A stretch of 35,436 bases of DNA from Candidatus Woesearchaeota archaeon. Its GTDB lineage: Archaea > Nanobdellota > Nanobdellia > Woesearchaeales > GCA-2687795. The DNA lies in NCBI GenBank assembly GCA_030753365.1, contig JASMCJ010000058.1, positions 1-35,436 on the forward strand. The letters are read 5' to 3'. Numbering within the stretch: position 1 is the stretch's first letter; each line of letters starts with the position of its first letter. The translations under genes were made by a program, and so were the position numbers. Below, piece by piece: positions 16,561 through 34,663 of this stretch. The notes beneath the pieces were generated by a model. That model saw only the letters and a program-made list of their open reading frames with translations. It ran no database searches and was not told where the DNA came from.

Positions 16561-19500
16561 ATAGAAAACAAAAAAAAGTGTGATAAACTAATAGGCTTAA
16601 TATTTTTACTCTTAATAATAATAGGAGTAACAAGCCTTACTGGCGCAGAAAACGCCGTTAACTCAGAAGCTGACCTTAACTGCGAGCAAGTTGCTTCTGA
16701 AGACATGCCATCCTTTTCATACTTTGGAATAGAACCCCCAAATACACCTTCCATATCCTCCATACCATATTCTGATCCCTTACCAGACGACCTCTTTAAA
16801 CCCGTAATGGTAAATCTAATGCTTGACATCGAAAAAGAAGGCGATGAAGTTCATGTCTACAAAGTTCTGGACATAGTAGAAGAAAAAGGCTGGACACTAA
16901 CCATCTTTGTAACAGGCGAGTTCGCATCCAACCATCCAGACATTATAAAAGACTTCAATGCCCGAGGCCATGAAATAGGAATCAGTGGCTGGGACAATCA
17001 AGACATCAACTCATTAAGCTATGAAAACCAATTAGACTTAATCAGCAGGTCAATAACCGCTGTAAAACAAGCATTAGAAGTTGAAGAATTTGATATTCAC
17101 TTCAAGCCCTCAAATATTATCTTAGACTATGATAACAATGCAGACACTTTCAAAGTTATGCAAACTCTCAATGTAAAATCCATAGTAGGCATAATCTCTG
17201 TTGGCGAAAACTATCAATGTTGGTACAGCAGGTCAAAAGGCGGAATTTATGACCCTGTTCCAACTCCTTACAATGTTAACGCAATCCCTATATCACGTAT
17301 AGAAGTTAACTCTGAAGAAACACCAGTAGTTGATGATCTCAACCTAATCTCAAATAAATACACCGAACTAACCTCTCCAGAATTTCAAAAAGTCTACCAG
17401 GAAGCATCCACAATAGAAGGTGAAGTCTTTGAAGGCAACACAAAGCCATACGTAAGAACAGTTCTACATTCCTCTGAGCTAAACACCAAAGAAAAGCTTG
17501 AAGACCTCTCAAATTTCCTTAACAGAGTAGAAAAAGCTGAAGGCCAGGTAGAGCCAATAGGAATCTATGCATCAATCCAGGGTTATATAACCACTTTAGA
17601 CTTGAAAGGTCCTGACTCTTCATATCCAGACAAAAGTCAAACACTCAATATAACCTACTATGCAAACCTATACTGCCCATGGTACTACTTTAGAATATAC
17701 GGAAAATACGACTCTCAAAACTGGAAACTATTAGGCCAGGCATCTTATTATGTTACTACAGGAACTAAGAAATTTCAAAAAGGCATCACCGTCCCTAAAC
17801 CTCCAACAGATGCAGATGATGAATACAATGTGAGAATCGTTGGAAGAGCCTGCGCTGGCGCAGCATGCTGGCCAAGCTATAACAATTATGAAAACATGGA
17901 TGAAATCAAAATCAAAATCAACAAAACATGCCAATTAGTATTTGGAAGCGGGAATGCTGCAAGATACGATATAGTCTTTGTCCCTGCAGAATTTGATGAA
18001 GCAGAATTTGACACAACCTTTGCAGCAGCAGTAACAAGCAACTGGAACGCAATCGGCAATGCCGCCCCTTTCAGCGCTAGCAAAAACAAGTTCAATGTTT
18101 GGAAAGTAAACAAATTAGACGATGCAGGCTTAAACTGCCATCAAAACTGTTCTGGATTACCTGCCTGGGCAAGCTCATACTGGTGCTGTAACAAAGCAAA
18201 GGCCAAAGCATTAGCAAGCGAATGTAAAAACAGGGACACAGTAATCACCTTAATTGATTCAACAGACTGGACCGGTTACAGAAGTGGGCCAAGATGCACA
18301 ACAGGTGGAGACCTCATTGTTAAAGCCAGGAACAACCCTGCTATCAACCTGCACGAAATGGGCCATGCCTTTGGCTTAGGAGACGAATATGTGCCTTATA
18401 ACCAAAACTTTACACCTGCCTATGCCCCTTGTGACAACTGCGACAAAAACAGCGCCTGCCCCAAATGGAACGCCAGTCCTAGTTGTATCATGGGATGCAC
18501 CTATAGGAATGATTACAGGTCAACAGCAACATCTGTAATGAGAGACAACCAACTTCCTTTCAATGCAGTCTCTGTTACGCACTTAAATGCTGAGCTTACA
18601 GCATTCTCTTCAGCCGAAGTGAGAGATGTAGGAGACTTAGATGAGCCAGAAATAAAAACATACATCCTTTCATTCATTTATCATGTTGGAAATGACTCTC
18701 TTGCCTTAGAAGATAAAGAGGTTAGAGAAACATATCCAGACGAAAATGACACAGACGGCACTTATAGGTATGAAATTATCTCATTATCTGAAACCAGCCT
18801 TTATTCAGCTAATTTCGTGGACCCCTATTTAGTAACAGATTCTGTCACTCTACTGGAAAGTTCTTTAACACCTCCTGAAGATTTTGTTATCAACGACACA
18901 CCTATACCAGACTATCCTCCACCAGAAGCACCGTCACAGGAATTTGTGTTAATAACGCCATTCTTCTTTGACGCTGAAACAATCAACATCTACGATGAAA
19001 ACAACAGTCTTAAACTTTCCATAGACGTTTCAGAATTTATGAGTGGAGACCTGACAGGAGTGATAAAAGATCCCACTGGTAATCCAGTAGTCAACGCAAT
19101 AGTCTACGCAATCCAGGATAATTACAACTACAGCTCTTCTTCATACACTAATACTAATGGAACCTATGCAATGAGAGGATTAGGTTCAGGCACAGCAAGC
19201 ATAAGAGTCACAGCATTACACGACCTTAACCTAAGAGAAGCTTCAACATCATTTACTATAGTTCCAGGCCAGAGAAATTTACTTAATATTACCCTTGCCC
19301 AATCATCAAGTATCAGCGGTACTGTTACATACCTCAATGGAACAGGCATGCCAAACCCTATCCTTTACTTAGAATACTATGAAGCCCCTCGTTACACTGG
19401 AGATGAAAATGGCAGCTACCTTATGCCTTGGTTAACTCAGGGAGCTCACACACTAAACATAGACACAGGCAACTGGTATATATGGGTTAATAACGACTAT

Positions 19501-22500
19501 ACAAGTTACGGCAGAAACACTCCTTTAAACATTATACTTGGAGAAACAACAACAGTTGATTTCAGTCAGCAGCCACCACCAACATTCAATGATATCACCA
19601 TAAGCCCTCAATATCCAAATGTAAATACAGACGTAACAGTCTCAGCAAACATAACCTCTGAATTTGTTAACATAACTGAAGCTAGATTATTCTATCGTTA
19701 CAACACTTCAGCATGGAACAACCTTACCATGCAGAACACAGGTGACATCTACTCTGCAGCAATCCCTGGAAATGAAAACACATCAAGAGTCTCTTTCTAT
19801 ATAGCTGTAACCGACAGCTCTGGAAGAAGAAAAAGCAATATAAACAAATTCATCATAGACGGAGAAAGTCCCACATTAGCAGGCATCACTGTTCCACAAT
19901 TTGCAGATGTAAATGAAAGCATAACAATCAATGCAAACTTTCAGGACAATGTAGGATTAGCAGCTGCAACCTTATACTATCAGTTCGATGCAGGCTCATT
20001 CAATCCAGTGGCAATGACAGTCGTTGGCAACTCCAGCTCAGGAACAATTCCTCAAAAGAATACTCCCGGCACCGTGGAACTTTATATTCAATCCACTGAC
20101 TTAAGCGGAAACTCTTTCAACACATCCGCATATTATTACATTGTCAAAAGGTTTGGCAGGCTTGAGCCATACTTAATAACCCCCTCAACCAACATACCAG
20201 TATCCAGAAGCCATTTATTTAACTTCAGCTCTGGTGTAAGATGCGTAGGAGGAGAATGCGGTAATATAACATCAATCTTAGATCCTTACGGTCCAGACGG
20301 ATTCAATTACACAGCCCTAAACTCAACAGAAGAAGGAGGCGACCCTTTCGAATGGGAAGAAATCATAACCAATGGTGAAGGAATACCTTTATGGGACATT
20401 GGCCAATCAGCTGATGACAGTTATCAAACTGCGCCCATTAACTTCACATTCCAATTTTACGGAATAAATTACACCAACGCCTATGTATCATCCAATGGGA
20501 GGATACATCTCACAAATAGTGGAGCTGGCAGCACATCTATAAGTTTGCCTTCAAACAGCTATAAAGTAATTGCTCCTCTTAACAGAGACATGTATGTAAG
20601 GTCTAACACTCAGGTATTCTATAAGAATTATGACAATCCTAAGAGGATGGTTATTGAATACAAAAACCTTGATTATTATAGTGGAATCGGTAACTTCAAT
20701 TATGAAATAATCTTATATGAAGATGGAAAAATAAAGATTCAATACAACCAATCAAGCAGCTCCTATGCTCCGGGAAATCAAGCAGGAATAAACCATGGCT
20801 CAACAAACAACTACTATTTATTAATAGAAAACGATGCTCCTGACCTACACAAAGGCGAAGCTGTCACATTCTACCCTCCTTATTATAGTGGCATGTGGAA
20901 AGGAGTCATCCCTATGAACAATGGAACACCTTTCTACACAATAGACCAAAACCCAGCAAGCTGCTACAACATGCAGGAAAACGACACTTGTGAACACACT
21001 TGGAGAGTGAACGCCACAGGTGAGCATCTAACCAACTGGACATTCTTCACAATCTATAATTCACAATACACTAACCACATTGAAGAAAAACAAACTGATA
21101 AAATAAATATAACAATAATCGGCAACAATCTGCCTATTATTTCATCTGTTGAATGTCAGGAAAACAATTCAATCTGGCAAGACTGTTCAAACATCATCTA
21201 CAATGACCTATTAACAAGAGTAAGAGTCAATTGCACAGACTCTGACGGTACTGTCACCAACGTTAATGCAAAACTGGAAAATATTCCAGACAACAACATA
21301 TTCTTTAACAGCTCTTCTGTCCAGAACGGTGATTGGTGGACTTATGACAATGCTGATATCACTATCCAAGACTCAGGCTACTGGAAACTCTCTGTAAGCT
21401 GTACAGACAACGGAGGCGTTGACGGAATAAAACAAGACAATAAAATAATTCAATGGTTAGTTGACTGGGGACATTTAAGCTCTTACATGGCTCAACCTAT
21501 TGGCAATAACCTTAGTGTTAAGCAAAGCATACCTTTCAGTGTCACAACTGGCGTAAGCTGTATTGGCGGAGAATGCGGCAGTATTGAATCTGCTTTAGAC
21601 CCGCAAGGTCCAATCAGAGTTGCTGTCTATAATCATAATGGGATTACAAGTGTGCTTAATGAAGCTTTAGACATAAACGCCACTCAGGTAAGCACTTATA
21701 ATTCTGCAACGCTTGAAAATTATGATGTGCTGATAAATGTTCGTAATTCAAACCTAAACCAGGCAGATGTGCTAAACTTTATCCAGAACGGCGGAGGCTG
21801 GGTAGGTGAATGGACAAGCAATGAGATTCCTGTCACTAACTGGGGCGCAATATCAGGTACATTATCAGGTTCAGGTACTAGCGGCTCTCAAAGTGTAAAC
21901 ATCCTTCTCCCAAACCACTACCTTGCCACTGAAATTGATTGGGCCAACATCCCTGTTGGGGCAAATCCAGTAGACTATATGCGAGACTTAAGAGGCATAA
22001 ACGATCCTGATGCAGAAACCGTAGTCACTGTAAACCATAATTCTTACCCAAACAATCCTTTAATAGTTGACAAAGGATATGGAACCGGGAGAATTGTTCT
22101 ACTCAATTGGGATTATCAGGATTCTCCTAATTATAATGCTTACATAAAAGATATGATTCAGGAAACTGTAAGATGGGCTGCAACTATGGGCAAAGGAGTA
22201 ATCCCTATGAACAATGGCACACCCTTCTACACAACAAACCAAAACCCAGCATTATGCGTCAACATGATAGCAGGCGATGTATGCGAGCACACATGGAATG
22301 TTATGCCAACTGGTGAAGACAACACAACCTGGGACTTCTTCACTATCTATACACCATTAAACTACTCAGCTTATCTAATAGAAAACCGAACAAGAACAGT
22401 CAAAGTAATAATTCTTACCAATCCTCCACCAGCAATCAACCAGCTTGAATGCAATGACGGCAGCAGCTGGCAGTCATGCTCCAACATACAATACAATGAC

Positions 22501-25500
22501 ACACTAACTCAAGTAAGAGTAAACTGCACAGATGCTGATGGTTATATACTATCTGCAAATCTAAGCCTGAAAAACATCCAGGACAGCAACATATTCTTTA
22601 ACAATGCTGCCACCCAGCAAAACGGCTGGTGGACATATGACAACACAGATTTACTAATAGAAGACTCAGGAGATTGGAAATTAACAGCAATCTGCACTGA
22701 CAATGAAAGCACTCAAAACAGCGGTTCTGCTGACAGGTTAGTTAACTGGGGTCATTTAGAATCCTATTTTATTGAACCTCTAGAAAATATCAGCATTATG
22801 CAAAACAAGTTTTTCAATGTCACAACCAGAGTAAGATGTATTGGCGGTGAGTGTGGAAATGTAAGCACTGCTTTAGACCCAGAATCTGCAGCACCAGAAG
22901 AACCAAACCTAAATAAGGCAAGTGACAAAATAGAAACTGAAATAATTGAAGACCTTGACACAGAAGACACCGTCTCTGTAATAGTCATACTAAAAGATGA
23001 AGAACCATCGCAAAAGAGTATGCCAGAAATCAAAGCAAAAGTAAAAGAAAACCAGGACACTGTTTTATCTAACCTTGAAACCGAAGAATTCGACATAAAA
23101 TACAAATACAACACAATAAACGCAATCTCTGGAGAAGCAACAGAACAGGGAATAGAGAAACTAAAGGATAACCCTAACGTTGAAGCAGTTTACAAAAACC
23201 AAGAGTTAAGGATAGTTCTTTCTGAAAGCGTTCCTTTAATAAATGCAGACGACCTTCATTCATTGGGAATAACTGGTGAAGGGCAGACAGTATGCGTTGT
23301 TGACACAGGAATTGATTACGCGCACCCTGACCTTGGAGGCTGCACCCAAAGTGAATTTTTGAATGGACAATGCGCCAAAGTTCCATCTGGCTATGACTTC
23401 TATAACAGTGATACTAACCCAATGGACGACCAGTCTCATGGAACACATGTTGCTGGAATAGTAGCAGCAAACGGTGTTTTAACTGGAGTAGCCCCTAACG
23501 CAAGATTACTTGCTCTAAAAGTATGTAGTTCTGGAGGCAGTTGCAATGGTGATGCAATGATAGCTGGCGTTGACTGGTGCAATGAGCACAAAGACCAGTA
23601 CAACATTGTTGCAACAACAATGAGCATTGGCGATGGTGGGCAATATAATACAAACACTTGCCCTACATGGATGGACACTGCCATAACCACAGCCCATGAC
23701 TTAGGAATAGCTGTAACAATAGCATCCGGAAACGAATATCATAGCAATGGCATCTCTTATCCTGGCTGTTCACCAAACGCAATATCTGTTGGTTCAACAA
23801 CAAAAGCTGATGTCATCTCAGGCTTTTCTAACACTGGAAGCTTGCTTGACGTTTTAGCTCCAGGCAGCAGTATATATGCTCCAATACTCAATGGAGGTTA
23901 TGGCTATAAATCAGGCACATCAATGGCAACACCTCACGTTGCAGGCGCAGTAGCATTACTCTCGCAATACAGTAACCCTTCTGGAGTCAACCAAATTGCT
24001 GCCAGTCCAGATAGGATAAAAGAAGCACTACAGAACACAGGCGTTCCAATAACTGACCCTGACAATGGATTAAGTTTCCCAAGGATAGACTTATTAGCAG
24101 CTCTTGATGAGTTTGGTAAAGGTATAATCCCAATGAACAATGGCACGCCATTCTATACAATAGACCAAAACCCTACAACATGCCAGGACATGAAAGCAAA
24201 TGACGAATGCGATCGTACATGGAGTATTATGCCAACAGGTGAAGAAAACACAACTTGGGACTTCTTCACAATCTATACCCCTACAACCTACTCCAATTAC
24301 TTAAACGGAACTGAAACCAACAAAGTAAGCATAACAATCCTTGGAGCTATTTTGCCTCAGATTAACCAACTTGAATGCAACGATGGCAGTAGCTGGCAGT
24401 CATGCTCCAACATACAATACAATGACATATTAGATCAGGTAAGAGTAAACTGCACAACCCCTAATGGTTCTATAGTCTCTGCTAACCTAAACCTGAAAAA
24501 CATCCAGGACAACAACATCTTCTTTGATAGTACCGCCACCCAACAGAACGGCTGGTGGACATATGATAACACAGATTTCATAATAGAAGATTCAGGCGAC
24601 TGGAAACTAACAGCAGCATGTGTTGACCATGAGGGCATCCAAGGCGATGGTCACTTTGACTGGTTAGTTGATTGGGGTCATTTACAACCTTACTTAATTA
24701 ATCCTACACAATCCACAAATGTTAATCAAAACAAGTTTTTCAACGTCTCAACAGGAGTAAGATGTATAACAGGTGAATGTGGTGATATCGATGTAACATT
24801 AGACCCAGAAGAAATGTCTATTGAGCCAATAGATGTTCTCATAGTTAGCGCAGACTCATCTGTTGACACTGAAGTAAGAAATAAAATATTAACTGCAGGT
24901 GGCTCAAATATAAATTCGGTTGCTATTTTTAATGCGCAATATGGCACACCTACTTTAATCCAATTACAGAATTATAGTGTGGTATTAACCTATTCAAACT
25001 ATCCATATTCTAGTAGTACTGCATTAGGTAACGTATTAGCAGAATATGTAAATAATAGCGGAGGTGTGGTAGTAACTGTATTTTCTCATCACCTATCAAC
25101 CTGGGGCATTACTGGACAATGGCTCTCAGGCCAGTATAATCCAATATTACAACAGAATTCCTATACCAGCGGCACTGTATACCAAGGAACAGTTTACGAA
25201 CCTGGACATCCAATTATGAATGGAGGAGATAATATCAATGGTGGATGGTATTTCCAGACCTCTAGCATAACTCCAAATGCAATCAGAGTTATGGATTGGA
25301 CTAATGAATATATTGGAGCAGCAGTAAAAGAGATTAATAGTGGAAAAGTTGTTGGCCTAAATCTTCGTTATGGTGAGACAACAACATCAGATGGAGCTGA
25401 TTTATTATTAGTTAATTCACTTCTTTGGGCTGCTGGAAGAAGCGGTAGTGCAAAAGGTGTAATCCCAATGAACAATGGAACACCATTCTACACCATAGAT

Positions 25501-26715
25501 CAGAATCCAGCTCAATGTCCAGACATGAGAGCTGGCAACACCTGTGAACACACATGGAGAGTCAACGCAACAGGAGACCTTAATTCATCCTGGCTCTTCT
25601 ATACAATCTATAACTCTATTATTGCAACAAACACAACTGAGAAATTTAATGTAACAATCGTTGATACTATTTGCACTCCAGACTGGGTACTAAACGACAC
25701 CTGGTCAACCTGTGACATCACGGACAATCAATTCAAGAACTATTATGACGCTAACAACTGTGACCTGCCAGAAGCAAGACCTGGCCATATAAACCAAACA
25801 TGCGACTACTGTACACCTGCTCCAACCTACACATCATGGTCAGCTTGGGAAAATCAAGGCAGCTGCTTAATCAATGACACTCAGCTTCAGCAAAGAAACA
25901 GGACAGAATACGATGCAGACTATGACAGCTGCTATGCAGTAACCAACCTAAATTCAGACCTTTGGAACAATGGCAACAACAACACTCACTTAGGCTACCA
26001 GGGTATTGCTTGCGACTACTGCACACCTATTTGGGAAGAAGTCATCAATGAATGTCAGCCAGACGACACTTATACCGGTTGGTACAACGACACCAACGAC
26101 TGTTATGCAATAACAGGCTTAGACTCAGACAATAACCCACCTGCTAACAACATCTATAACTGTGAATATATATGGCAATTCCAAGCTCCACTAAACCAGG
26201 ACTGGAACCTAATCAGTATACCTTTAACACTAAGCAACAACTCCTTTAGCTCTGCCCTTTCATCAATAGAAGGCAAATATAACACACTATTTGCATACGA
26301 CTCTATAGGGAACAGCTGGGACAGTTATTACACAGACGAGCCAGAATTTTTGAACAGCATCTACTCAATAAGTCCTGAAAAAGGTTACTGGGTAAATCTC
26401 TTAGAAGATGCAACATTAACTTTCAGTGGCAGGCTTATAACACAGTTAATCTACAACCTTAAAAATGATTGGAACCTAATCAGTTACCCATCACTAACAG
26501 AACAGCCAGTTACAACAGCATTAGCAGACGTTAATGAGACCTACACAACCATGTTTGCCTTCATCAACGGCACATGGATAAGTTACTCCCCTGAGAAACC
26601 TAGTTTCATGAATAGTTTGGAGATTATGAAACCAGGCTATGGTTACTGGATTAAAGCCAACCAAGATGTAACATGGGTATTCAATGGAACAGTCTATAAA
26701 CTAAGGGACCAATAA
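16561..26715 (+). CDS. Giant secreted modular protein (~3,384 aa): degenerate NodB deacetylase, M64-type metallopeptidase, Ig-like domains, four scaffold repeats with inserts (nidogen-like, two alpha/beta domains, I9+S8 subtilisin), Cys-rich repeats, C-terminal WNLIS double domain
   Basis: HEMGHAFGLGDEY; subtilisin triad VVDTG/HGTHVAG/GTSMATPHVAG; four KG(V/I)IPMNNGTPFYT repeats. The frame extends upstream of ATG 16705 into a signal peptide (ATA start at 16561 inferred). Confidence 0.88.
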   Translation: MENKKKCDKLIGLIFLLLIIIGVTSLTGAENAVNSEADLNCEQVASEDMPSFSYFGIEPPNTPSISSIPYSDPLPDDLFKPVMVNLMLDIEKEGDEVHVYKVLDIVEEKGWTLTIFVTGEFASNHPDIIKDFNARGHEIGISGWDNQDINSLSYENQLDLISRSITAVKQALEVEEFDIHFKPSNIILDYDNNADTFKVMQTLNVKSIVGIISVGENYQCWYSRSKGGIYDPVPTPYNVNAIPISRIEVNSEETPVVDDLNLISNKYTELTSPEFQKVYQEASTIEGEVFEGNTKPYVRTVLHSSELNTKEKLEDLSNFLNRVEKAEGQVEPIGIYASIQGYITTLDLKGPDSSYPDKSQTLNITYYANLYCPWYYFRIYGKYDSQNWKLLGQASYYVTTGTKKFQKGITVPKPPTDADDEYNVRIVGRACAGAACWPSYNNYENMDEIKIKINKTCQLVFGSGNAARYDIVFVPAEFDEAEFDTTFAAAVTSNWNAIGNAAPFSASKNKFNVWKVNKLDDAGLNCHQNCSGLPAWASSYWCCNKAKAKALASECKNRDTVITLIDSTDWTGYRSGPRCTTGGDLIVKARNNPAINLHEMGHAFGLGDEYVPYNQNFTPAYAPCDNCDKNSACPKWNASPSCIMGCTYRNDYRSTATSVMRDNQLPFNAVSVTHLNAELTAFSSAEVRDVGDLDEPEIKTYILSFIYHVGNDSLALEDKEVRETYPDENDTDGTYRYEIISLSETSLYSANFVDPYLVTDSVTLLESSLTPPEDFVINDTPIPDYPPPEAPSQEFVLITPFFFDAETINIYDENNSLKLSIDVSEFMSGDLTGVIKDPTGNPVVNAIVYAIQDNYNYSSSSYTNTNGTYAMRGLGSGTASIRVTALHDLNLREASTSFTIVPGQRNLLNITLAQSSSISGTVTYLNGTGMPNPILYLEYYEAPRYTGDENGSYLMPWLTQGAHTLNIDTGNWYIWVNNDYTSYGRNTPLNIILGETTTVDFSQQPPPTFNDITISPQYPNVNTDVTVSANITSEFVNITEARLFYRYNTSAWNNLTMQNTGDIYSAAIPGNENTSRVSFYIAVTDSSGRRKSNINKFIIDGESPTLAGITVPQFADVNESITINANFQDNVGLAAATLYYQFDAGSFNPVAMTVVGNSSSGTIPQKNTPGTVELYIQSTDLSGNSFNTSAYYYIVKRFGRLEPYLITPSTNIPVSRSHLFNFSSGVRCVGGECGNITSILDPYGPDGFNYTALNSTEEGGDPFEWEEIITNGEGIPLWDIGQSADDSYQTAPINFTFQFYGINYTNAYVSSNGRIHLTNSGAGSTSISLPSNSYKVIAPLNRDMYVRSNTQVFYKNYDNPKRMVIEYKNLDYYSGIGNFNYEIILYEDGKIKIQYNQSSSSYAPGNQAGINHGSTNNYYLLIENDAPDLHKGEAVTFYPPYYSGMWKGVIPMNNGTPFYTIDQNPASCYNMQENDTCEHTWRVNATGEHLTNWTFFTIYNSQYTNHIEEKQTDKINITIIGNNLPIISSVECQENNSIWQDCSNIIYNDLLTRVRVNCTDSDGTVTNVNAKLENIPDNNIFFNSSSVQNGDWWTYDNADITIQDSGYWKLSVSCTDNGGVDGIKQDNKIIQWLVDWGHLSSYMAQPIGNNLSVKQSIPFSVTTGVSCIGGECGSIESALDPQGPIRVAVYNHNGITSVLNEALDINATQVSTYNSATLENYDVLINVRNSNLNQADVLNFIQNGGGWVGEWTSNEIPVTNWGAISGTLSGSGTSGSQSVNILLPNHYLATEIDWANIPVGANPVDYMRDLRGINDPDAETVVTVNHNSYPNNPLIVDKGYGTGRIVLLNWDYQDSPNYNAYIKDMIQETVRWAATMGKGVIPMNNGTPFYTTNQNPALCVNMIAGDVCEHTWNVMPTGEDNTTWDFFTIYTPLNYSAYLIENRTRTVKVIILTNPPPAINQLECNDGSSWQSCSNIQYNDTLTQVRVNCTDADGYILSANLSLKNIQDSNIFFNNAATQQNGWWTYDNTDLLIEDSGDWKLTAICTDNESTQNSGSADRLVNWGHLESYFIEPLENISIMQNKFFNVTTRVRCIGGECGNVSTALDPESAAPEEPNLNKASDKIETEIIEDLDTEDTVSVIVILKDEEPSQKSMPEIKAKVKENQDTVLSNLETEEFDIKYKYNTINAISGEATEQGIEKLKDNPNVEAVYKNQELRIVLSESVPLINADDLHSLGITGEGQTVCVVDTGIDYAHPDLGGCTQSEFLNGQCAKVPSGYDFYNSDTNPMDDQSHGTHVAGIVAANGVLTGVAPNARLLALKVCSSGGSCNGDAMIAGVDWCNEHKDQYNIVATTMSIGDGGQYNTNTCPTWMDTAITTAHDLGIAVTIASGNEYHSNGISYPGCSPNAISVGSTTKADVISGFSNTGSLLDVLAPGSSIYAPILNGGYGYKSGTSMATPHVAGAVALLSQYSNPSGVNQIAASPDRIKEALQNTGVPITDPDNGLSFPRIDLLAALDEFGKGIIPMNNGTPFYTIDQNPTTCQDMKANDECDRTWSIMPTGEENTTWDFFTIYTPTTYSNYLNGTETNKVSITILGAILPQINQLECNDGSSWQSCSNIQYNDILDQVRVNCTTPNGSIVSANLNLKNIQDNNIFFDSTATQQNGWWTYDNTDFIIEDSGDWKLTAACVDHEGIQGDGHFDWLVDWGHLQPYLINPTQSTNVNQNKFFNVSTGVRCITGECGDIDVTLDPEEMSIEPIDVLIVSADSSVDTEVRNKILTAGGSNINSVAIFNAQYGTPTLIQLQNYSVVLTYSNYPYSSSTALGNVLAEYVNNSGGVVVTVFSHHLSTWGITGQWLSGQYNPILQQNSYTSGTVYQGTVYEPGHPIMNGGDNINGGWYFQTSSITPNAIRVMDWTNEYIGAAVKEINSGKVVGLNLRYGETTTSDGADLLLVNSLLWAAGRSGSAKGVIPMNNGTPFYTIDQNPAQCPDMRAGNTCEHTWRVNATGDLNSSWLFYTIYNSIIATNTTEKFNVTIVDTICTPDWVLNDTWSTCDITDNQFKNYYDANNCDLPEARPGHINQTCDYCTPAPTYTSWSAWENQGSCLINDTQLQQRNRTEYDADYDSCYAVTNLNSDLWNNGNNNTHLGYQGIACDYCTPIWEEVINECQPDDTYTGWYNDTNDCYAITGLDSDNNPPANNIYNCEYIWQFQAPLNQDWNLISIPLTLSNNSFSSALSSIEGKYNTLFAYDSIGNSWDSYYTDEPEFLNSIYSISPEKGYWVNLLEDATLTFSGRLITQLIYNLKNDWNLISYPSLTEQPVTTALADVNETYTTMFAFINGTWISYSPEKPSFMNSLEIMKPGYGYWIKANQDVTWVFNGTVYKLRDQ
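26188..26715 (+). repeat. WNLIS...P(E/G)xGYW double domain, copy 1 (copy 2 at 34142..34663)
   Basis: Ungapped hand alignment gives about 112/170 aa identical; near-identical DNA stretches such as TGGAACCTAATCAGTTA and ATGAAACCAGGCTATGG. Confidence 0.9.
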
Positions 26716-27985: not shown

Positions 27986-29302
27986 ATGAAAAGTCTAAAA
28001 GATATAGGTCAAATTATTAAGCACACAGGTCAAATTATAAAACATTCTGCAAAATATTTAATCTTAACAGCTGCTTTTTCCGCAGTCGTATTAGCATGCC
28101 AAGATATCTATCCTCCCGTCACAAAATTTGATGCAGACCCTACATCTGGTGTTGTGCCTTTAATCGTCAATTTTGATGGAGGAAATTCTTATGATGTAGC
28201 TAGTCCTACAGGTATGGGAGGTGTTATAACAGACTCCAGATGGGATTATACTTATAATCCAGGCGAAGGTCCACAAACCGATGGTACAGGACTTACTGGT
28301 CGACATACATATCCTGATATTGGTACTTTCACAGCAAGACTGACTAACCGAGATGCTGCAGGCAACCCAAGTTTTGCTGATGTAATTATCCATGTATTAG
28401 CAGAACCTGACGAAATTCCACCTTATGTATTAGAATCTACTATTGGGTTAGAACCGAATGACCCTGATCAGCACCGGAATGATCTTGAAGCATTAGTAAC
28501 ACCTAATGAAAATGTAAAAGAAGGCAAGCTTTACGTTGATGGTGTGCTAAGAGATACTTTTACATCAAACGAAGGCTCAACAGAAGTAACCCTTGATTAT
28601 AGTAATCTAGGTCTTGGCAGCCATGACATCGCTGTCATATTAACAGACATGTCTAATAATGAATCAGAACTTTACTCCCTTGGCAGTATTACCATCGGAG
28701 AAGCGCCTGACCTGGAAGCTCCTGTTGCAAGAATAACTATAGACCGGAACGAGCTTTATCTGCCTGGCACAGTCAATCCCAGTGCAGTTACTTCAACAGA
28801 TAATCGAGGAATAGTCACATATGAATGGGACCTTAACAACGATGGCACAACAGATGCCACTGGAGTCACAGCATCAAAAGCGTATACTGACTCAGACGCA
28901 GGCTACCATACCATTAAACTAACCGTAACAGATGCAGCAGGGCGTACAGATTCAGCCACTCTGGAAATAATAGCAGCAAAGGATATACCTCCTCCATTGC
29001 CTTATACGCCATATGGTGCAGTACAAGGTGCAAATGTGAACGAAGGCGACCTTGTTGAATACTTTGTAGGCGGGAGAAGATATGCTTCATCTAATGTCCA
29101 AACTGAAACTCTTGATGACGTTAGCCAGCTAGTATACTTTAAACACATTAGCGCAGATGACCCAAATACAGCCATCATGGAAGGCGTGGCACATGCAGGC
29201 GGACAACCAGTTACCATAAGAATTAATGGCACAGACTATTCTCCTGTTATAGGCAGTTCTCCTCTATGGTCAACTGGTGTAACTGAAAGAAAGGACATGT
29301 AG
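27986..29302 (+). CDS. Putative lipoprotein with two PKD domains
   Basis: GGTGAT RBS; lipobox-like VVLAC; PKD motifs PLIVNFDG..SYD...HTY...G.FTARLT and YEWDLNNDG...IKLTVTD; C-terminal ADDPNT..MEG domain. Confidence 0.85.
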   Translation: MKSLKDIGQIIKHTGQIIKHSAKYLILTAAFSAVVLACQDIYPPVTKFDADPTSGVVPLIVNFDGGNSYDVASPTGMGGVITDSRWDYTYNPGEGPQTDGTGLTGRHTYPDIGTFTARLTNRDAAGNPSFADVIIHVLAEPDEIPPYVLESTIGLEPNDPDQHRNDLEALVTPNENVKEGKLYVDGVLRDTFTSNEGSTEVTLDYSNLGLGSHDIAVILTDMSNNESELYSLGSITIGEAPDLEAPVARITIDRNELYLPGTVNPSAVTSTDNRGIVTYEWDLNNDGTTDATGVTASKAYTDSDAGYHTIKLTVTDAAGRTDSATLEIIAAKDIPPPLPYTPYGAVQGANVNEGDLVEYFVGGRRYASSNVQTETLDDVSQLVYFKHISADDPNTAIMEGVAHAGGQPVTIRINGTDYSPVIGSSPLWSTGVTERKDM

Positions 29303-29554
29303 CCTGCGCTTTAAAACAGGATTAGTTAGCAAACATTTTTCTTTTTCTCTCTCTTTATAAATAAAAGTCTAAATCTTTATATAATGCAAAGCATTCTCAT
29401 TCTCTATGGGGGTTTGATATGATAAAAGTATTAGAATATACTTTATTACTAACAACACACAACATTTATTCTTCCACTTTAAAAACAGGGCCCTCTAACG
29501 ATTCTCAAGCAATTATTGATTCTAATAATTTTTTTAATAGAGAATTAAAAAAAC

Positions 29555-31009
29555 ATGAAACCTAACTTATCAAAACTCTTTGCAATCCTTGTAACATTCT
29601 TAATCAGTTTAACCCCTATCTGCTCTGCAAGCCAATCATACAATCTTCAATATGATCTTAATGGAAATTTAATTCAGGACAAAGATAACTTTTATGAATA
29701 TAACAGTCTAAATCAGTTAACCAGAATAAGACAAAATAATGAAAATGGCAGAATTCTTGAAGAATACGATTATGATAATAACGGAGACAGAATAAAAAAG
29801 GTCAGCTATCATGAAGACCTCTCTAACACAATAACATATTATATAAATAAAAACTTCATAAGGGTCATAAACAATTCAGGAACTTACGACTTTATATACT
29901 ATTATAATGATGGCCAGCTAATAGCCAAGCAAAACCCTGACAATTCTAAATCCTATTACCACCCAGACCATTTAGGAAGCAACAATATCATAACCGATGA
30001 AGCTGGAAACAAAATAGAAGAAACCACTTACTTACCCTTTGGAGACATTCTTGAAGGAGGCAACGACAGGTTCACATACACCGGAAAAGAAAAAGACTCC
30101 ACTGGCTTAATGTATTATGGTGCAAGATACTATTCTCCATTCTTAAGAAGATTCACCCAACCAGACACATTAATCCAGGACATCTATGACCCTCAATCAT
30201 TAAACAGATATGCCTATGCAAGAAACAATCCTTTAGTATACAAAGATGATAGCGGTCATTTCTGGCATATAGCATTAGGCATGGCAATTGGTGGTGTAAT
30301 AGGAGGAGGAGCTAATCTAATAGGCCAGGTATTAAATGGTGCTTCATTATTTGATGGTTCTGTTAACTGGGGTTCTGTTGGTATAAGCGCTGTTGCAGGT
30401 TCAGTTTTTGGAGGAGTAGCCACTGCAACATTTGGCTTAGGAATAGCAGCTGCAGGTACAGGATATGGAGGATATGCTTTAGGAGGTGCAATTTCATGAT
30501 TAACTGGAGGAAGAGCCTCGCAATTAACTTCTAACTTAATAACCAAAGACAACTCTTGGAATGATGACCTTCTCAATGTAAAAGATATTACCATAGAAAC
30601 AGGCGGCGGTGCTATATTCGGTATGGCTGGGAAAGCTGTAGGTTCGGTTTTCGGCAAAGGAAAAGTCTCTTCTAAACCAAATCTTAAATCTGGAAAAGTT
30701 CAGGAATTTCCCATCAAAGATTTGTATGGTACGCATCAGTTAAGTAAAAAATACGTTTTAGCACCTGAGAAAATAAAGTTAGGTAAGAGTAAAGGACCTA
30801 TAGAAATTTTTAATTATGAAGGAAAATTAATAATTAATGATGGAATGGGGAGAACAGCAAGATCAAAATTAGTGTATGGGAAAGATACTGTATCAGGTAG
30901 GATTAGTAACCCTTCTCCTGGAGATATTGGTGGGTGGGAATATGCTAGATATCTTAATCAAAGAAGTAATCAAGAGAATATGATTGAATTAATTGGAAAC
31001 ATGAAATAA
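29555..31009 (+). pseudogene. Secreted mini-Rhs: signal peptide, Rhs core, Gly-rich segment and ParB/Srx-like C-terminal toxin, interrupted by one in-frame TGA at 30497..30499
   Basis: YHPDHLGS, RFTYTGKEKD.TGLMYYGARYY, NRYAYARNNP....D..G. ORFs 29555..30499 and 30623..31009 share a frame with no other stop; C-terminal PIEIF...GKLIINDGMGR. Confidence 0.8.
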
Positions 31010-31011
31010 AA

Positions 31012-31743
31012 ATGATATTGAAAAATAGAAACCAAAACTTTAGTAAACTAATAACTCAGTTTAATAGAGAATATATCAAAGATACTCCTTGGCCCAATGG
31101 CACCTTTAATAAGCTAATTAAAGGAGGGTACAAGAACGAGATAGAAGAATTATTAACAAGAGATATAGACTACAACTTATTTAAATTTCTTTTAAATGTT
31201 TATATTAGATATGAGAATATTGATTTAGAGCTTATTAAAAAATTATTTAAGAATAACTTTAATAATATAAATAATCTAAATGCCATTGTAAGTATTGTTC
31301 TACATATTAATAGAGGTGATTTTGGGGATATGCTTCAAAAAGCTCTTGATAAATATTATAATGAATTTTTAAAATCAAATCTTAAGATTATCAACACCAA
31401 AGGGGGAGTCTCTTTCTTAGCAATAATTATTCTTGCATTAGGGAATTATAATCAAACAAGCTGTATTCCAAAACTGAAAGAAATAGCCAAAACTCAAAAA
31501 ATAAACGAACCCAGTCTGGCAATGGCTGCAGAACATTCACTTGAAAGATTAGGACTAATCAAAAAAGTTGAGTCCCCCAAAAATATGGAAAAACAAGATT
31601 GGAAAAAAATAAAACAGTGTTTTGAGTGTAAAAGTAAAAACATTTTCTTAGATAAAAAAAGAAAAGAACTAGTCTGCCAAAAATGCGGCTTAGTTCAAAC
31701 AGGTAAGGAGGATTATCTCAAAGCAAAAAGTATGGGTCAATAA
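31012..31743 (+). CDS. Candidate immunity protein: helical/HEAT-like body with a C-terminal TFIIB-type Zn ribbon
   Basis: Starts 2 nt after the toxin stop; very AT-rich; ALG.....CIPKL...AAEHSLERL; CFECKSKNIFLDKKRKELVCQKCGLV. Confidence 0.65.
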   Translation: MILKNRNQNFSKLITQFNREYIKDTPWPNGTFNKLIKGGYKNEIEELLTRDIDYNLFKFLLNVYIRYENIDLELIKKLFKNNFNNINNLNAIVSIVLHINRGDFGDMLQKALDKYYNEFLKSNLKIINTKGGVSFLAIIILALGNYNQTSCIPKLKEIAKTQKINEPSLAMAAEHSLERLGLIKKVESPKNMEKQDWKKIKQCFECKSKNIFLDKKRKELVCQKCGLVQTGKEDYLKAKSMGQ

Positions 31744-31783
31744 CCACCCCAAGCAGTACCTTCTAAAGGAAATCAAAAACAGT

Positions 31784-34663
31784 TTGGGAGGAATAACAAC
31801 CCTTGACTATAAAAAAATAGCATCATTAGACAACACTGGAAATGATAATATAAATGATTTAGGATTTAATGGTTGGGTAGTTAACACTATAGAAAATAAC
31901 AATAACATTTTTGGAACTCAAAACACCATCTCAACTCATAATATTAGTTATGAAAATGGAATGTTTGATCCAGATGAAAGGCAATTTGCAGGGTTTGCTT
32001 ATGTTGAAGAAACAAGAAACCAAAAAACCAAAATAAGACATAATTTCTTCCAAGATAAAGGAAAAAGGGGCTTGGAATATGAAACAGAAATCTTGAATAC
32101 TAGCAATAATCTTTTCAAAAAAATTCAAAATGAATTCACATCCACTTATGATGATGAATATTATGTCAACACTTTACTCTGGACAATTAACTCCTTATAT
32201 GATGAATCAGTTGAAACTCCTTCACAAACTAAAATCCAATTTGGCTATGATAACTATGGAAACATAATAAGCACATCTTATCTAGGAGACACTTCAAAAA
32301 CAGGAGACGAAAAATATCTCTACAATGAATATCTTTACAACACTGACAACTGGATTATCGACCTGCCAAAACATACCTATCTATTAGAATCTGACGATTC
32401 AACCAAAGTAAGTGAAACTTGGTATAGCTATGACAGCAATGGGTACAACGAGAACCCAACAAGGGGCGACATAACTTCTATAGAATACTGGCTTGACATA
32501 GGAACAAACCCAGTTGAAACATACCACTATGACACCTACGGAAACGTTTTAACCTACACTAATCCTCTAAGCCATTCCACTCACTACACATATGGCTCAA
32601 ACAACACATTCATCATAAGAGAAACAAACGCAATAGGTCATGAAACAAATTATGAATATGACAAAGGAACAGGTAACATTCTATCAGAAACAGACCCAAA
32701 CGGTATCAGAATAGAATATCACTATGATGTATTTGGAAGAAAAGTTAAAGAAATTCTTCCTTATGATTCTATAGACTATCCTTCTATTCAGATAGAATAT
32801 AATTTAGACGGTACTGCTCCCGAAGAAATAAAAGTAATGAACAGAGAACAATCTGGTACAACCAACACATTTGATACTTACTTTTATTATGACGGATTTT
32901 GGAGATTGATTCAAAAAAAGAGTGAATCAGAACAGCAGGAATTAATAACATCTGATATCTACTATGATAAAACTGGAAAAATAAAGCAAGAAAGCAATCC
33001 TTACTATTCCAGCACAGGGTATACCATCCCCAATGAAAACATAAACTCTATAACTTATACTTATGACCCTCTCGGAAGAATAACACACACAAACTATCCT
33101 GATGGTTCTGCTGAAAACATTATTTATAATAACTGGGAAACCTTGATTTATGACAGGAATGGCAACATCAAAGAATACGAACATGATGCATACGACAGAA
33201 CAACCAAGGTAAAAGAACATAATAATAATGAAATATACACAACATCATACTTCTACGATGATAATGATAACCTTATCAAAATATTAGACAACCAAGATAA
33301 TTTTATCCAGTATGAATATGACAGCCTTAGCAGAAAAATAGGATTAGACGACATGGATTTAGGTATATGGTCTTATATTTACGATACTATTGGAAACTTA
33401 ATAACACAAACAGATAACAAAGGCAATATAATACATTTAACATATGATCAATTAAACAGGATTACACATAAAGAATTCAGTGAAGGAGACATTACATATA
33501 CTTATGATGTTAACACTCTGGGAACCCTCACCTCAATCCAAACACCTACTCTCCTAAGAAATTTCTGGTATGATAATAAATTCAGAAAAATAAGAGAAGA
33601 AAAGGTCATTGATGGAACATCTTTTGACACACTGTATAGTTATGATTCAATGGACAGGTTAATATCCAAAACTCTTCCCAATGAAGAAATTATAAACTAT
33701 GAATACAATGACCAATCCCTTCTTGAATCTATCCCTTCAATCATAAACAACATTGATTATAATGAAATGTCTCAAACATCAACTAGAAACTATGCTAACA
33801 ATCTTGATACTCAATTTGAATATGAGCCTTACAATTATAGGTTGCATGAAATAAGCACAGAAAATATTCAGGAACTTGAATATTCTTATGATAACATAGG
33901 GAACGTTTTACAAACAAATGACATTATGAACAATAAAATAAGTGAATTTGAATATGATGATTTACACAGGTTAACACATGCTCAACGCCCTTCAGATTTT
34001 GACATTCATTATATATATGATAGTATAGGAAACCTCTTGGACATATCTTCAGAAAGACTTAATGCTACATTCTACTATAATAATGGACTTGCGCACACTC
34101 CAATTATGATAAATGATAAGAGCGTACCTCTTCTCACCATCCCTTTGGAAAAAGAATGGAATCTTATATCCATACCATTGGTTTTAGAAGAAAACACTTT
34201 CCCAAAAACTCTTTTATCATTAACTGGCAAATACACCACCATCTTTGCATACAACTCATCAGAAAATACCTGGGACAGCTATTACACAAACCAACCTTCT
34301 TTCCTAAACTCAATAGACTCAATAACTCCAGAGAAAGGCTACTGGATAGAAATGATTGAAAACGCCACACTAACCATCCCAGGAGACCTTCCAACATCAA
34401 CCGTCTACAACCTTTACAACGGCTGGAACCTAATCAGTTATCCTTCACTAACAGAGCAGCCAATCGCCTCAACCTTAGCCAACGTAAACGAAACCTTCAC
34501 AACTATCTTCACATTCAACAACAATGTTTGGGAAAGCTACTCTCCAAACAAACCATCCTTCCTCAACACACTGCAAACCATGAAACCAGGCTATGGCTAC
34601 TGGATAAAAGCAAATCAAAATGTAACTTGGCAATTCAACGGCACGCATTACAACATAAACTAA
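31784..34663 (+). CDS. Rhs/YD-repeat shell (TcdB-midN-like start), N-terminally truncated, lacking Rhs core and toxin, with C-terminal WNLIS double domain
   Basis: Frame open from 31694 (KVWVNNHPKQYLLKEIKNSLGG); ERQFAGFAYV; many YDxxG(N/R) repeats; ends LAHTP then the WNLIS domain. Confidence 0.82.
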   Translation: MGGITTLDYKKIASLDNTGNDNINDLGFNGWVVNTIENNNNIFGTQNTISTHNISYENGMFDPDERQFAGFAYVEETRNQKTKIRHNFFQDKGKRGLEYETEILNTSNNLFKKIQNEFTSTYDDEYYVNTLLWTINSLYDESVETPSQTKIQFGYDNYGNIISTSYLGDTSKTGDEKYLYNEYLYNTDNWIIDLPKHTYLLESDDSTKVSETWYSYDSNGYNENPTRGDITSIEYWLDIGTNPVETYHYDTYGNVLTYTNPLSHSTHYTYGSNNTFIIRETNAIGHETNYEYDKGTGNILSETDPNGIRIEYHYDVFGRKVKEILPYDSIDYPSIQIEYNLDGTAPEEIKVMNREQSGTTNTFDTYFYYDGFWRLIQKKSESEQQELITSDIYYDKTGKIKQESNPYYSSTGYTIPNENINSITYTYDPLGRITHTNYPDGSAENIIYNNWETLIYDRNGNIKEYEHDAYDRTTKVKEHNNNEIYTTSYFYDDNDNLIKILDNQDNFIQYEYDSLSRKIGLDDMDLGIWSYIYDTIGNLITQTDNKGNIIHLTYDQLNRITHKEFSEGDITYTYDVNTLGTLTSIQTPTLLRNFWYDNKFRKIREEKVIDGTSFDTLYSYDSMDRLISKTLPNEEIINYEYNDQSLLESIPSIINNIDYNEMSQTSTRNYANNLDTQFEYEPYNYRLHEISTENIQELEYSYDNIGNVLQTNDIMNNKISEFEYDDLHRLTHAQRPSDFDIHYIYDSIGNLLDISSERLNATFYYNNGLAHTPIMINDKSVPLLTIPLEKEWNLISIPLVLEENTFPKTLLSLTGKYTTIFAYNSSENTWDSYYTNQPSFLNSIDSITPEKGYWIEMIENATLTIPGDLPTSTVYNLYNGWNLISYPSLTEQPIASTLANVNETFTTIFTFNNNVWESYSPNKPSFLNTLQTMKPGYGYWIKANQNVTWQFNGTHYNIN
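34142..34663 (+). repeat. WNLIS...P(E/G)xGYW double domain, copy 2
   Basis: Paralog of 26188..26715. Confidence 0.9.

Follow-up and report, generated by a model that had tools for sequence, protein, structure and literature searches.

Introduction

The prevailing view of Rhs and Tc cocoons is that each folds around the toxin it carries. The subject of this work is a split Rhs-type toxin module in a 35,436-nucleotide (nt) stretch of DNA, called the window throughout, that comprises positions 1 to 35,436 of contig JASMCJ010000058.1 (assembly GCA_030753365.1) of a Candidatus Woesearchaeota archaeon. There a YD-repeat protein without an Rhs core (the shell) and a smaller protein bearing that core and a putative toxin tail (the cartridge) are encoded by separate genes. 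The closest known system is the TcB/TcC cocoon (e.g., TcdB2-TccC3 and YenB/YenC), and the feature in common is an Rhs cocoon that is made, or in the archaea would be made, from two gene products. A single TcB accepts C subunits from different loci (PMC11067744) and natural fused TcB-TcC forms exist (PMC7861908). A two-protein cocoon with exchangeable toxin subunits is thus not new in itself, having the TcB/TcC precedent (PMC11067744).

Like TcB, the archaeal shell is the larger partner and carries an FG-GAP propeller and a TcdB_toxin_midN domain (plus SpvB in one relative), and like TcC, the cartridge is the smaller partner, with a predicted aspartyl autoprotease core and a variable tail, the putative toxin. 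TcC proteins are about 850-1050 amino acids (aa) and make up about a third of the cocoon (97.2% of them fall at 851-1050 aa; PMC7861908), whereas the cartridges are mostly 350-530 aa with about 210 aa of Rhs sequence. From these sizes, the archaeal cut lies about 450-500 residues further toward the C-terminus than the TcB/TcC cut. Also unlike TcB/TcC, both archaeal partners have signal-peptide-like N-termini, a small open reading frame (ORF) occupies the immunity position, the cartridge gene often comes first and the hosts are archaea. No gene of TcA size was noticed in the flanks that were read, and no search aimed at the TcA family was made.

The canonical single-chain Rhs toxins of Enterobacteria have downstream orphan core/toxin cassettes. 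The archaeal module resembles canonical Rhs systems in its YD shell, PxxxxDxxG core, variable tail that is the putative toxin, neighbouring candidate immunity gene and several toxin modules per locus (PMC3482391). It differs in that the main gene lacks both core and toxin, so that shell and core are not on one polypeptide, and in that each cartridge, unlike an orphan cassette, is a whole gene that has a start and an export signal of its own and often lies upstream of the shell. Bacterial teneurin-like proteins also have a Sec-exported, surface-anchored YD shell and a small polymorphic C-terminal toxin (PMC13018210), and two of them, 9pt5 and 9ifo, are the best PDB sequence matches of the cartridge. 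Unlike the archaeal split, they are single chains with an FN-plug and an NHL domain, and the available part of the source describes no split form (PMC13018210). The SPEARE proteins of Nanohaloarchaeota, also found on the surface of DPANN archaea, have laminin-G among their adhesion domains, and one SPEARE region has been modelled on a BC toxin shell (PMC6642349). However, each SPEARE protein is a giant single chain anchored in the membrane, and the text available reports neither a separate cartridge nor an Rhs core (PMC6642349).

Neither a cut between barrel and plug nor signal-peptide-bearing core genes were found described in the literature searched, which did not cover the 2019 Makarova survey of archaeal toxins. 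Within that literature the family-level architecture reported here, which is conserved, is undescribed. A sequence-only reading of the window had proposed a bipartite archaeal polymorphic toxin in which an exported core/toxin module plugs into a separately encoded shell. The present analysis bears this out in part: the complementary halves, the export-type N-termini and the damage stood up, and the split and the cartridge-first order proved to recur widely in related genomes. The bipartite-cocoon idea itself was already known from TcB/TcC.

Core and shell occupy separate reading frames in the window

Three consecutive reading frames lie on the + strand of the window, at 29555-30499, 31012-31743 and 31784-34663. 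In them we read the decayed remains of a three-gene module, one conserved in this order of small-genome DPANN, Woesearchaeota-type archaea. A search of the 897-kilobase (kb) genome found this single Rhs locus, and the window holds archaeal-type genes such as those for NreA and an SbcD-related archaeal phosphoesterase. Domains of the window ORFs were called by Pfam and NCBIfam profile searches, and signal peptides were called throughout by a heuristic, reading by eye plus a crude hydrophobic-run rule. The features of the two Rhs frames are as follows.

29555-29629, + strand: signal-peptide-like N-terminus of the cartridge (aa 1-25), a charged stretch and a hydrophobic run ending ...CSA, called by the heuristic and aligned in related cartridges
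29630-30259, + strand: conserved plug module (aa 26-235), in which YD repeats of about 130 aa are followed by the Rhs-associated core
30230-30256, + strand: PxxxxDxxG autoproteolysis motif (aa 226-234), motif and role as given in PMC7861908 and PMC8765631
30260-30496, + strand: start of the variable toxin tail, Gly-rich and hydrophobic, aligning with full-length homologues
30497-30499, + strand: in-frame TGA breaking the cartridge gene; the closest homologue, P0001, aligns on both sides and has a sense codon there
30500-31009, + strand: remaining toxin tail in the same frame (169 codons), the frame being open to 31009
31718-31783, + strand: shell homology upstream of the first start codon, the 5' truncation junction (from tblastn and alignment; the stop-to-stop frame opens at 31694)
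31784-34123, + strand: Rhs shell remnant (aa 1-780), the tail of TcdB_toxin_midN plus a YD-repeat barrel, without core
34010-34102, + strand: shell-end motif (aa 743-773, ...YDSIGN...AHTP), the breakpoint
34133-34657, + strand: C-terminal non-Rhs domain (aa 784-958), two tandem units of about 85 aa with a WNLIS motif

The cartridge ORF encodes 314 aa up to the in-frame TGA, and YNLQYDLNGN, from aa 29 on, opens its mature part. A match to TIGR03696, the Rhs core, spans aa 159-235 (30029-30259) and covers the whole profile (1-76 of 76; expectation value, E, 1.3e-18). Four residues, D204, P226, D231 and G234, are invariant across 38 aligned cartridges, and the cartridge carries the predicted aspartyl autoprotease motif of the Rhs core. 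The shell ORF encodes 959 aa from a TTG start. Its YD repeats match RHS_repeat (PF05593, E 3.7e-33) and YD_repeat_2x (TIGR01643, E 2.9e-22), TcdB_toxin_midN is represented only by profile positions 79-170 of 181 (at aa 1-91), and the segment from aa 1 to about 776 aligns with the full-length shells of 26 relatives. The shell gave no match to the Rhs core with TIGR03696, in the genome search or with our own core profile. The observation that had drawn attention to the locus, a cartridge with signal-like N-terminus, YD repeats and core beside a shell that lacks the core and ends in an unrelated domain, is therefore confirmed.

The split is conserved in gene content, order and breakpoint

In the relatives the shell is a TcB-like protein of 1500-3000 aa composed of a signal peptide, an FG-GAP propeller, TcdB_midN, the YD barrel and a variable non-Rhs tail. 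The relatives' cartridge is composed of a signal peptide, about 200 aa of YD repeats and core with PxxxxDxxG, and a variable toxin tail. Forty-one stretches were chosen from hit lists, not as a random sample, and the layout table holds 40 (L019, L022-L061) plus the window. Layout could be assigned in 31 loci, window included.

Cartridge first, on the same strand as the shell (n=18): window, L019, L030, L042-L056
Shell first (n=10): L022, L023, L024, L025, L031, L034, L057-L060
Shell and core in one frame (n=3): L026, L061, L033 (broken by a stop)

Most assignable loci of the order thus have a core-less shell and a separate cartridge, so the split recurs beyond this contig, and 18 of the 31 keep the cartridge-first order. 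The layout of L027 is ambiguous, the upstream frame being cut by the contig end. Nine further stretches hold one partner only: L028 has a shell without an adjoining cartridge, L029 a shell cut by the contig end, and L035-L041 have cartridges. The shells of cartridge-first loci are full-length save for cuts (L045 is split and L046 meets the contig end), and nearly all pass the signal-peptide rule; that of L054 fails it. Seven of the ten shell-first loci have a 4-nt overlap between the stop of the shell and the start of the cartridge, which suggests coupled production. A quick tree of 27 shells places six coupled shell-first loci in one clade (Shimodaira-Hasegawa-like approximate likelihood ratio test, SH-aLRT, 99) and the window with two cartridge-first loci. 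Both gene orders thus have the look of inherited states.

A few loci depart from the simple layouts. L034 (G042:C2, 7929-15521) is a three-part locus made up of an N-terminal piece of 1229 aa, a piece of 836 aa that has YD repeats and its own signal peptide, and a 469-aa cartridge, each part abutting or overlapping the next, with another cartridge upstream. At L045 (G371:C21, 2644-9900) the stop of the cartridge and the start of the shell share 4 nt, so that no ORF separates the two genes, and the shell is cut into 1631-aa and 360-aa pieces just ahead of the shell-end motif. L056 (G072:C2, 4541-18000) has two upstream cartridges, a 3013-aa shell and, immediately after it, a second shell of more than 1408 aa that is cut by the end of the stretch.

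The partition of domains is equally consistent. A search of 60 relatives gave long shell homologues (open frames of 1367-2241 aa) that align to shell aa 2 to about 780, and in ten of those relatives' genomes nearly all cores lie in frames of 350-500 aa. When our own core profile, made from alignment A2, was run on the fetched loci, the core was absent from 32 of the 33 ORFs with a long shell match, and 48 of the 54 core-bearing ORFs were shorter than 600 aa. FG-GAP_3 and TcdB_toxin_midN were present in six of seven relatives' shells scanned, the G006:C8 shell lacking both.

Alignment of the motifs of shells and cartridges bore out the earlier proposal of complementary, non-overlapping halves cut at a conserved point. 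The Rhs parts of ten aligned shells run in register into ...YDSIGN...HAP and then diverge; the exceptions are G024, where the motif is degenerate, and one shell cut by the contig end. The motif ends ...AHTP in the window and ...HAPS in most others, the consensus of 27 shells being ...YDSIGNxL...FxY...HAPS. Beyond it lie PKD domains in two shells, a NosD/beta-helix region in one and the WNLIS domain in the window, L019 and L051. On the other side of the cut, the window-type cartridges have xLxYDxNGN right after the signal peptide and can be aligned through to PxxxxDxxG. Their own signal-peptide-like N-termini, also part of that proposal, recur by the heuristic. The single-chain relatives are collinear with the two halves, and precisely at the breakpoint they have a variable insert, some 20-650 aa long: about 20-45 aa in P0130, 60 in P0058, 130 in P0052, 230 in P0137 and 650 in L026, where it includes Laminin_G_3 domains. 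The cut thus lies in a region that tolerates insertions. In proteins of 600-1015 aa the extra domains sit on the cartridge side.

Cores are widespread and mostly encoded in short frames

The core was present in 72 of 401 genomes of the order, with 207 matches. Among the 150 of these matches listed, the open frame is shorter than 600 aa in 132, 600-999 aa in 12, 1000-1199 aa in 2 and at least 1200 aa in 4. These counts include two unpublished genomes, G182 and G315, and dropping these two leaves 70 genomes, with 130 frames below 600 aa among the 148 listed. The shell query matched in 49 of the 401 genomes with at most two candidates scored per genome, so that no exact core:shell ratio follows. 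Cores do outnumber shells in several genomes, as had been anticipated, and several genomes hold 7-13 cores. Some cartridges form arrays of a minimal type: in L036 and L037 (both G006) and in G139 they are 345-425 aa proteins consisting of a signal peptide, a short linker, a core of about 100 aa and a variable tail.

In a protein library of 1.84 billion representatives, the conserved 240 aa as query retrieved 1064 proteins at E <= 1e-30. Among the best 150 of these, 120 are no longer than 550 aa with the match at the N-terminus and 7 are at least 1200 aa; of the 120 short proteins, 109 start with M and 99 pass the signal-peptide heuristic. Ten clusters were looked up, and 5 of the 13 listed members had names, all generic ('RHS repeat-associated core domain-containing protein', 'RHS repeat-associated protein' or 'hypothetical protein'). 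As organisms, the clusters name Candidatus Woesearchaeota and Candidatus Nanoarchaeia.

By sequence, the cartridge corresponds to the sealing end of a cocoon

Cartridge aa 29-243 match the last approximately 210 residues of YD shells, both in the teneurin-like protein 9pt5 (residues 1940-2152 of 2237) and in the TcdB2-TccC3 fusion 4o9x (1984-2190 of 2191). Common to all Rhs proteins characterised so far is a conserved stretch of 14 Rhs repeats at the C-terminus, which winds inward and closes off one end of the cocoon; in Rhs and Tc toxins it is the aspartyl autoprotease (PMC8765631). In Tc toxins the TcB propeller is the gate that closes the other end (PMC8765631). By these sequence matches the cartridge is the conserved Rhs module with which a cocoon is sealed at its C-terminal end, together with a putative toxin, and the archaeal split thus falls where barrel wall and sealing plug meet.

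The reading we favour, with considerable reserve, is that the two separately encoded proteins assemble into one Rhs cocoon, the cartridge closing and loading the shell. Shell and cartridge would both be exported by the Sec route and would assemble outside the membrane. The cartridge would supply the inward-spiralling C-terminal plug that closes the barrel, bring the toxin into it and cleave the toxin off. The shell propeller would act as the gate, and the tail domains of the shell could hold, anchor or aim the device. Several cartridges with one type of plug and different toxins might share one shell. Co-resident cartridges have plugs that are 60-98% identical (median 83, vs 44 between loci), and their tails are unrelated in seven of eight pairs. 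More speculative, and in our view somewhat short of an even chance, is the extension that interchangeable cartridges arm a surface-held DPANN shell without recombination and that lineages lacking the shell use the plug as a minimal self-cleaving toxin carrier.

Alternative explanations of the split

A different view is that the cartridges are autonomous secreted toxins whose YD/core module serves as a self-cleaving pro-domain, and that the core-less shells are independent surface adhesins; adjacency would then come from descent of a split gene and shared regulation, not from assembly. Several findings favour such toxins, and some of them also count against a two-chain cocoon. In genome G139 (92% complete) there are 12 cores, all of them minimal, and RHS_repeat finds no match there (E <= 0.001). 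In the minimal arrays L036 and L037 there is no shell within the fetched stretch, and of the 72 core-positive genomes 26 gave no shell match by the query used (E <= 1e-10, at most two candidates per genome, many genomes being incomplete). Since some genomes hold many cartridges and no shell match, the cartridge may also have a role that is independent of the shell. The tails of shells are adhesin-like, with PKD, Laminin_G_3 and beta-helix domains. A two-chain cocoon also has to contend with window-type cartridges that lack a shell in the fetched stretch (L038, L040 and L041), with the L028 shell that has no adjoining cartridge, with signal-peptide calls that rest on a heuristic, and with a literature search that found no precedent for an extracellular cocoon folding around a toxin on a separate chain.

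Autonomy fits poorly, however, with the conserved breakpoint and with shells that keep a full barrel and no plug of their own, and with the 4-nt stop/start overlap in seven shell-first loci. Window-type cartridges retain the entire plug of about 200 aa, well beyond the protease motif, plugs are near-identical among co-resident cartridges, and the cases without shell are mostly of the minimal subtype or from incomplete genomes. We therefore regard autonomous toxins as unlikely, yet as a serious contender to assembly of shell and cartridge into one cocoon.

The cartridges might instead be silent 'orphan' toxin cassettes that serve as recombination donors for a main single-chain gene. Several cartridges per locus with a common conserved part and differing tails would agree with this, as would the 395-aa cartridge of L025, which has no signal peptide, and the N-truncated one of L050. 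Nearly all cartridges, however, have their own start codon and signal-peptide-like N-terminus, 32 of 33 neighbouring shells have no core to recombine with, and the cartridge is upstream of the shell in 18 of the 31 assignable loci, which makes the cassette explanation very improbable. That the split is an accident of this contig, either a misassembly or a one-off rearrangement of a single-chain gene, can practically be discounted: the copy does have a nonsense codon and a deletion, yet the same layout occurs with intact genes at 17 other loci in many families of the order, and the 3-kb stretch is present in 20 public runs from 16 studies (seawater, marine and hydrothermal-vent metagenomes), in which contigs of runs X7 (29301-31825) and X8 (31149-32206) bridge the truncation junction, so that misassembly was rejected. 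The preferred reading remains a cocoon assembled from shell and cartridge.

The window copy is decayed

The suspicion that this copy is damaged, by an internal stop and a truncated shell, proved correct, with the correction that the shell is truncated at its N-terminus. When the TGA at 30497-30499 is read through (as X), the cartridge aligns end to end with P0001 (486 aa), with 64% identity over the conserved part. Contigs that cover site 30497, which come from four runs and as many studies, show no variant letter there, and a sequencing error was rejected on this ground. Because the TGA is unchanged across the four runs and P0001 reads through at this site, we take it to be real and the copy to be decayed. 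No other gene that needs TGA as a sense codon was noticed in the window and related loci, and no systematic test of the code was made.

Homology to shells sets in near 31718, ahead of which there is neither a start codon nor a signal peptide; the frame itself is open from 31694, which lies within the 3' end of ORF243, the second frame of the module. The first residue of the window shell aligns to residues 260-1023 (mostly 650-1020) of the relatives' shells, and the missing N-terminal part, roughly 700-1000 residues, holds in those relatives the signal peptide and the FG-GAP propeller. A 720-aa query for this part, taken from a relative, was unmatched in the window genome (94.5% complete), a search that had no positive control there. 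Contigs of run X6 are interrupted at 31700-31729, and past 31733 a minor branch of lower depth diverges, a hint at a strain with other sequence downstream of ORF243.

Variants among the four runs were 3:0 synonymous to non-synonymous in the cartridge before the stop, 3:1 in ORF243 and 10:10 in the shell, and the frames of the window were under constraint at least until recently. The fixed nonsense codon of the cartridge and a shell that lacks the signal peptide and the propeller end make it probable that the module has ceased to work as a surface device. Against this, the shell remnant still looks mildly constrained (10 synonymous vs 10 non-synonymous variants), so that loss of function is only probable.

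The toxin tail, the shell C-terminus and ORF243

The part of the toxin tail that follows the TGA (30500-31009) shares 53% identity with its counterpart in L054, where the 479-aa cartridge is intact. Pfam and NCBIfam searches assigned the tail to no family. Only two tail homologues matched ParB_N, both weakly (E 0.0054 and 0.062), and in the segment 30623-31009 a conserved NDGMGR aligns, by eye and over this one motif, with the DGHHR of the ParB_N-matching homologues. As a lead, the window tail may possibly be a ParB-like nuclease preceded by a Gly-rich membrane-type stretch.

The WNLIS domain that ends the shell is 64% identical to 26179-26703 of the same contig, the C-terminus of a 3336-aa ORF (16705-26715, + strand). 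The domain closes many other large ORFs and surface proteins of relatives, and in L032 it directly precedes a core. Its structural model has a predicted local distance difference test (pLDDT) value of 91.8 (from 7 sequences). The search of solved folds gave no match (best Foldseek E 0.011, best VIA-align Z 3.2), which does not imply a new fold; no Pfam family was assigned, and the protein-cluster search returned unnamed clusters only.

The frame between cartridge and shell encodes the third component of the module.

31012-31743, + strand: ORF243, 243 aa, probable immunity gene, beginning 2 nt past the end of the cartridge frame and lacking a signal peptide

The C-terminal approximately 50 aa of ORF243 carry a TFIIB-type zinc ribbon (Zn_Ribbon_TF, E 3.1e-7). 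The ribbon maps to 31606-31700 (aa ~199-230) and is not found in the 195-aa homologue at L053. That homologue (E 6e-21) lies directly after a cartridge with a related tail, the only one of the related tails that a homologue adjoins. Small ORFs without a signal peptide follow many cartridges in related loci. Given its location in the immunity position and this one independent co-occurrence, ORF243 is a probable immunity protein.

Implications

The lesson of the window itself is that its locus is a decaying copy. If the proposed assembly is true, a family that is cut between barrel and plug and whose halves are exported separately would give a handle on how the barrel closes and how the toxin enters it. 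Ultra-small archaea, whose modes of cell interaction are poorly known, would then hold a large and diverse arsenal of secreted polymorphic toxins.

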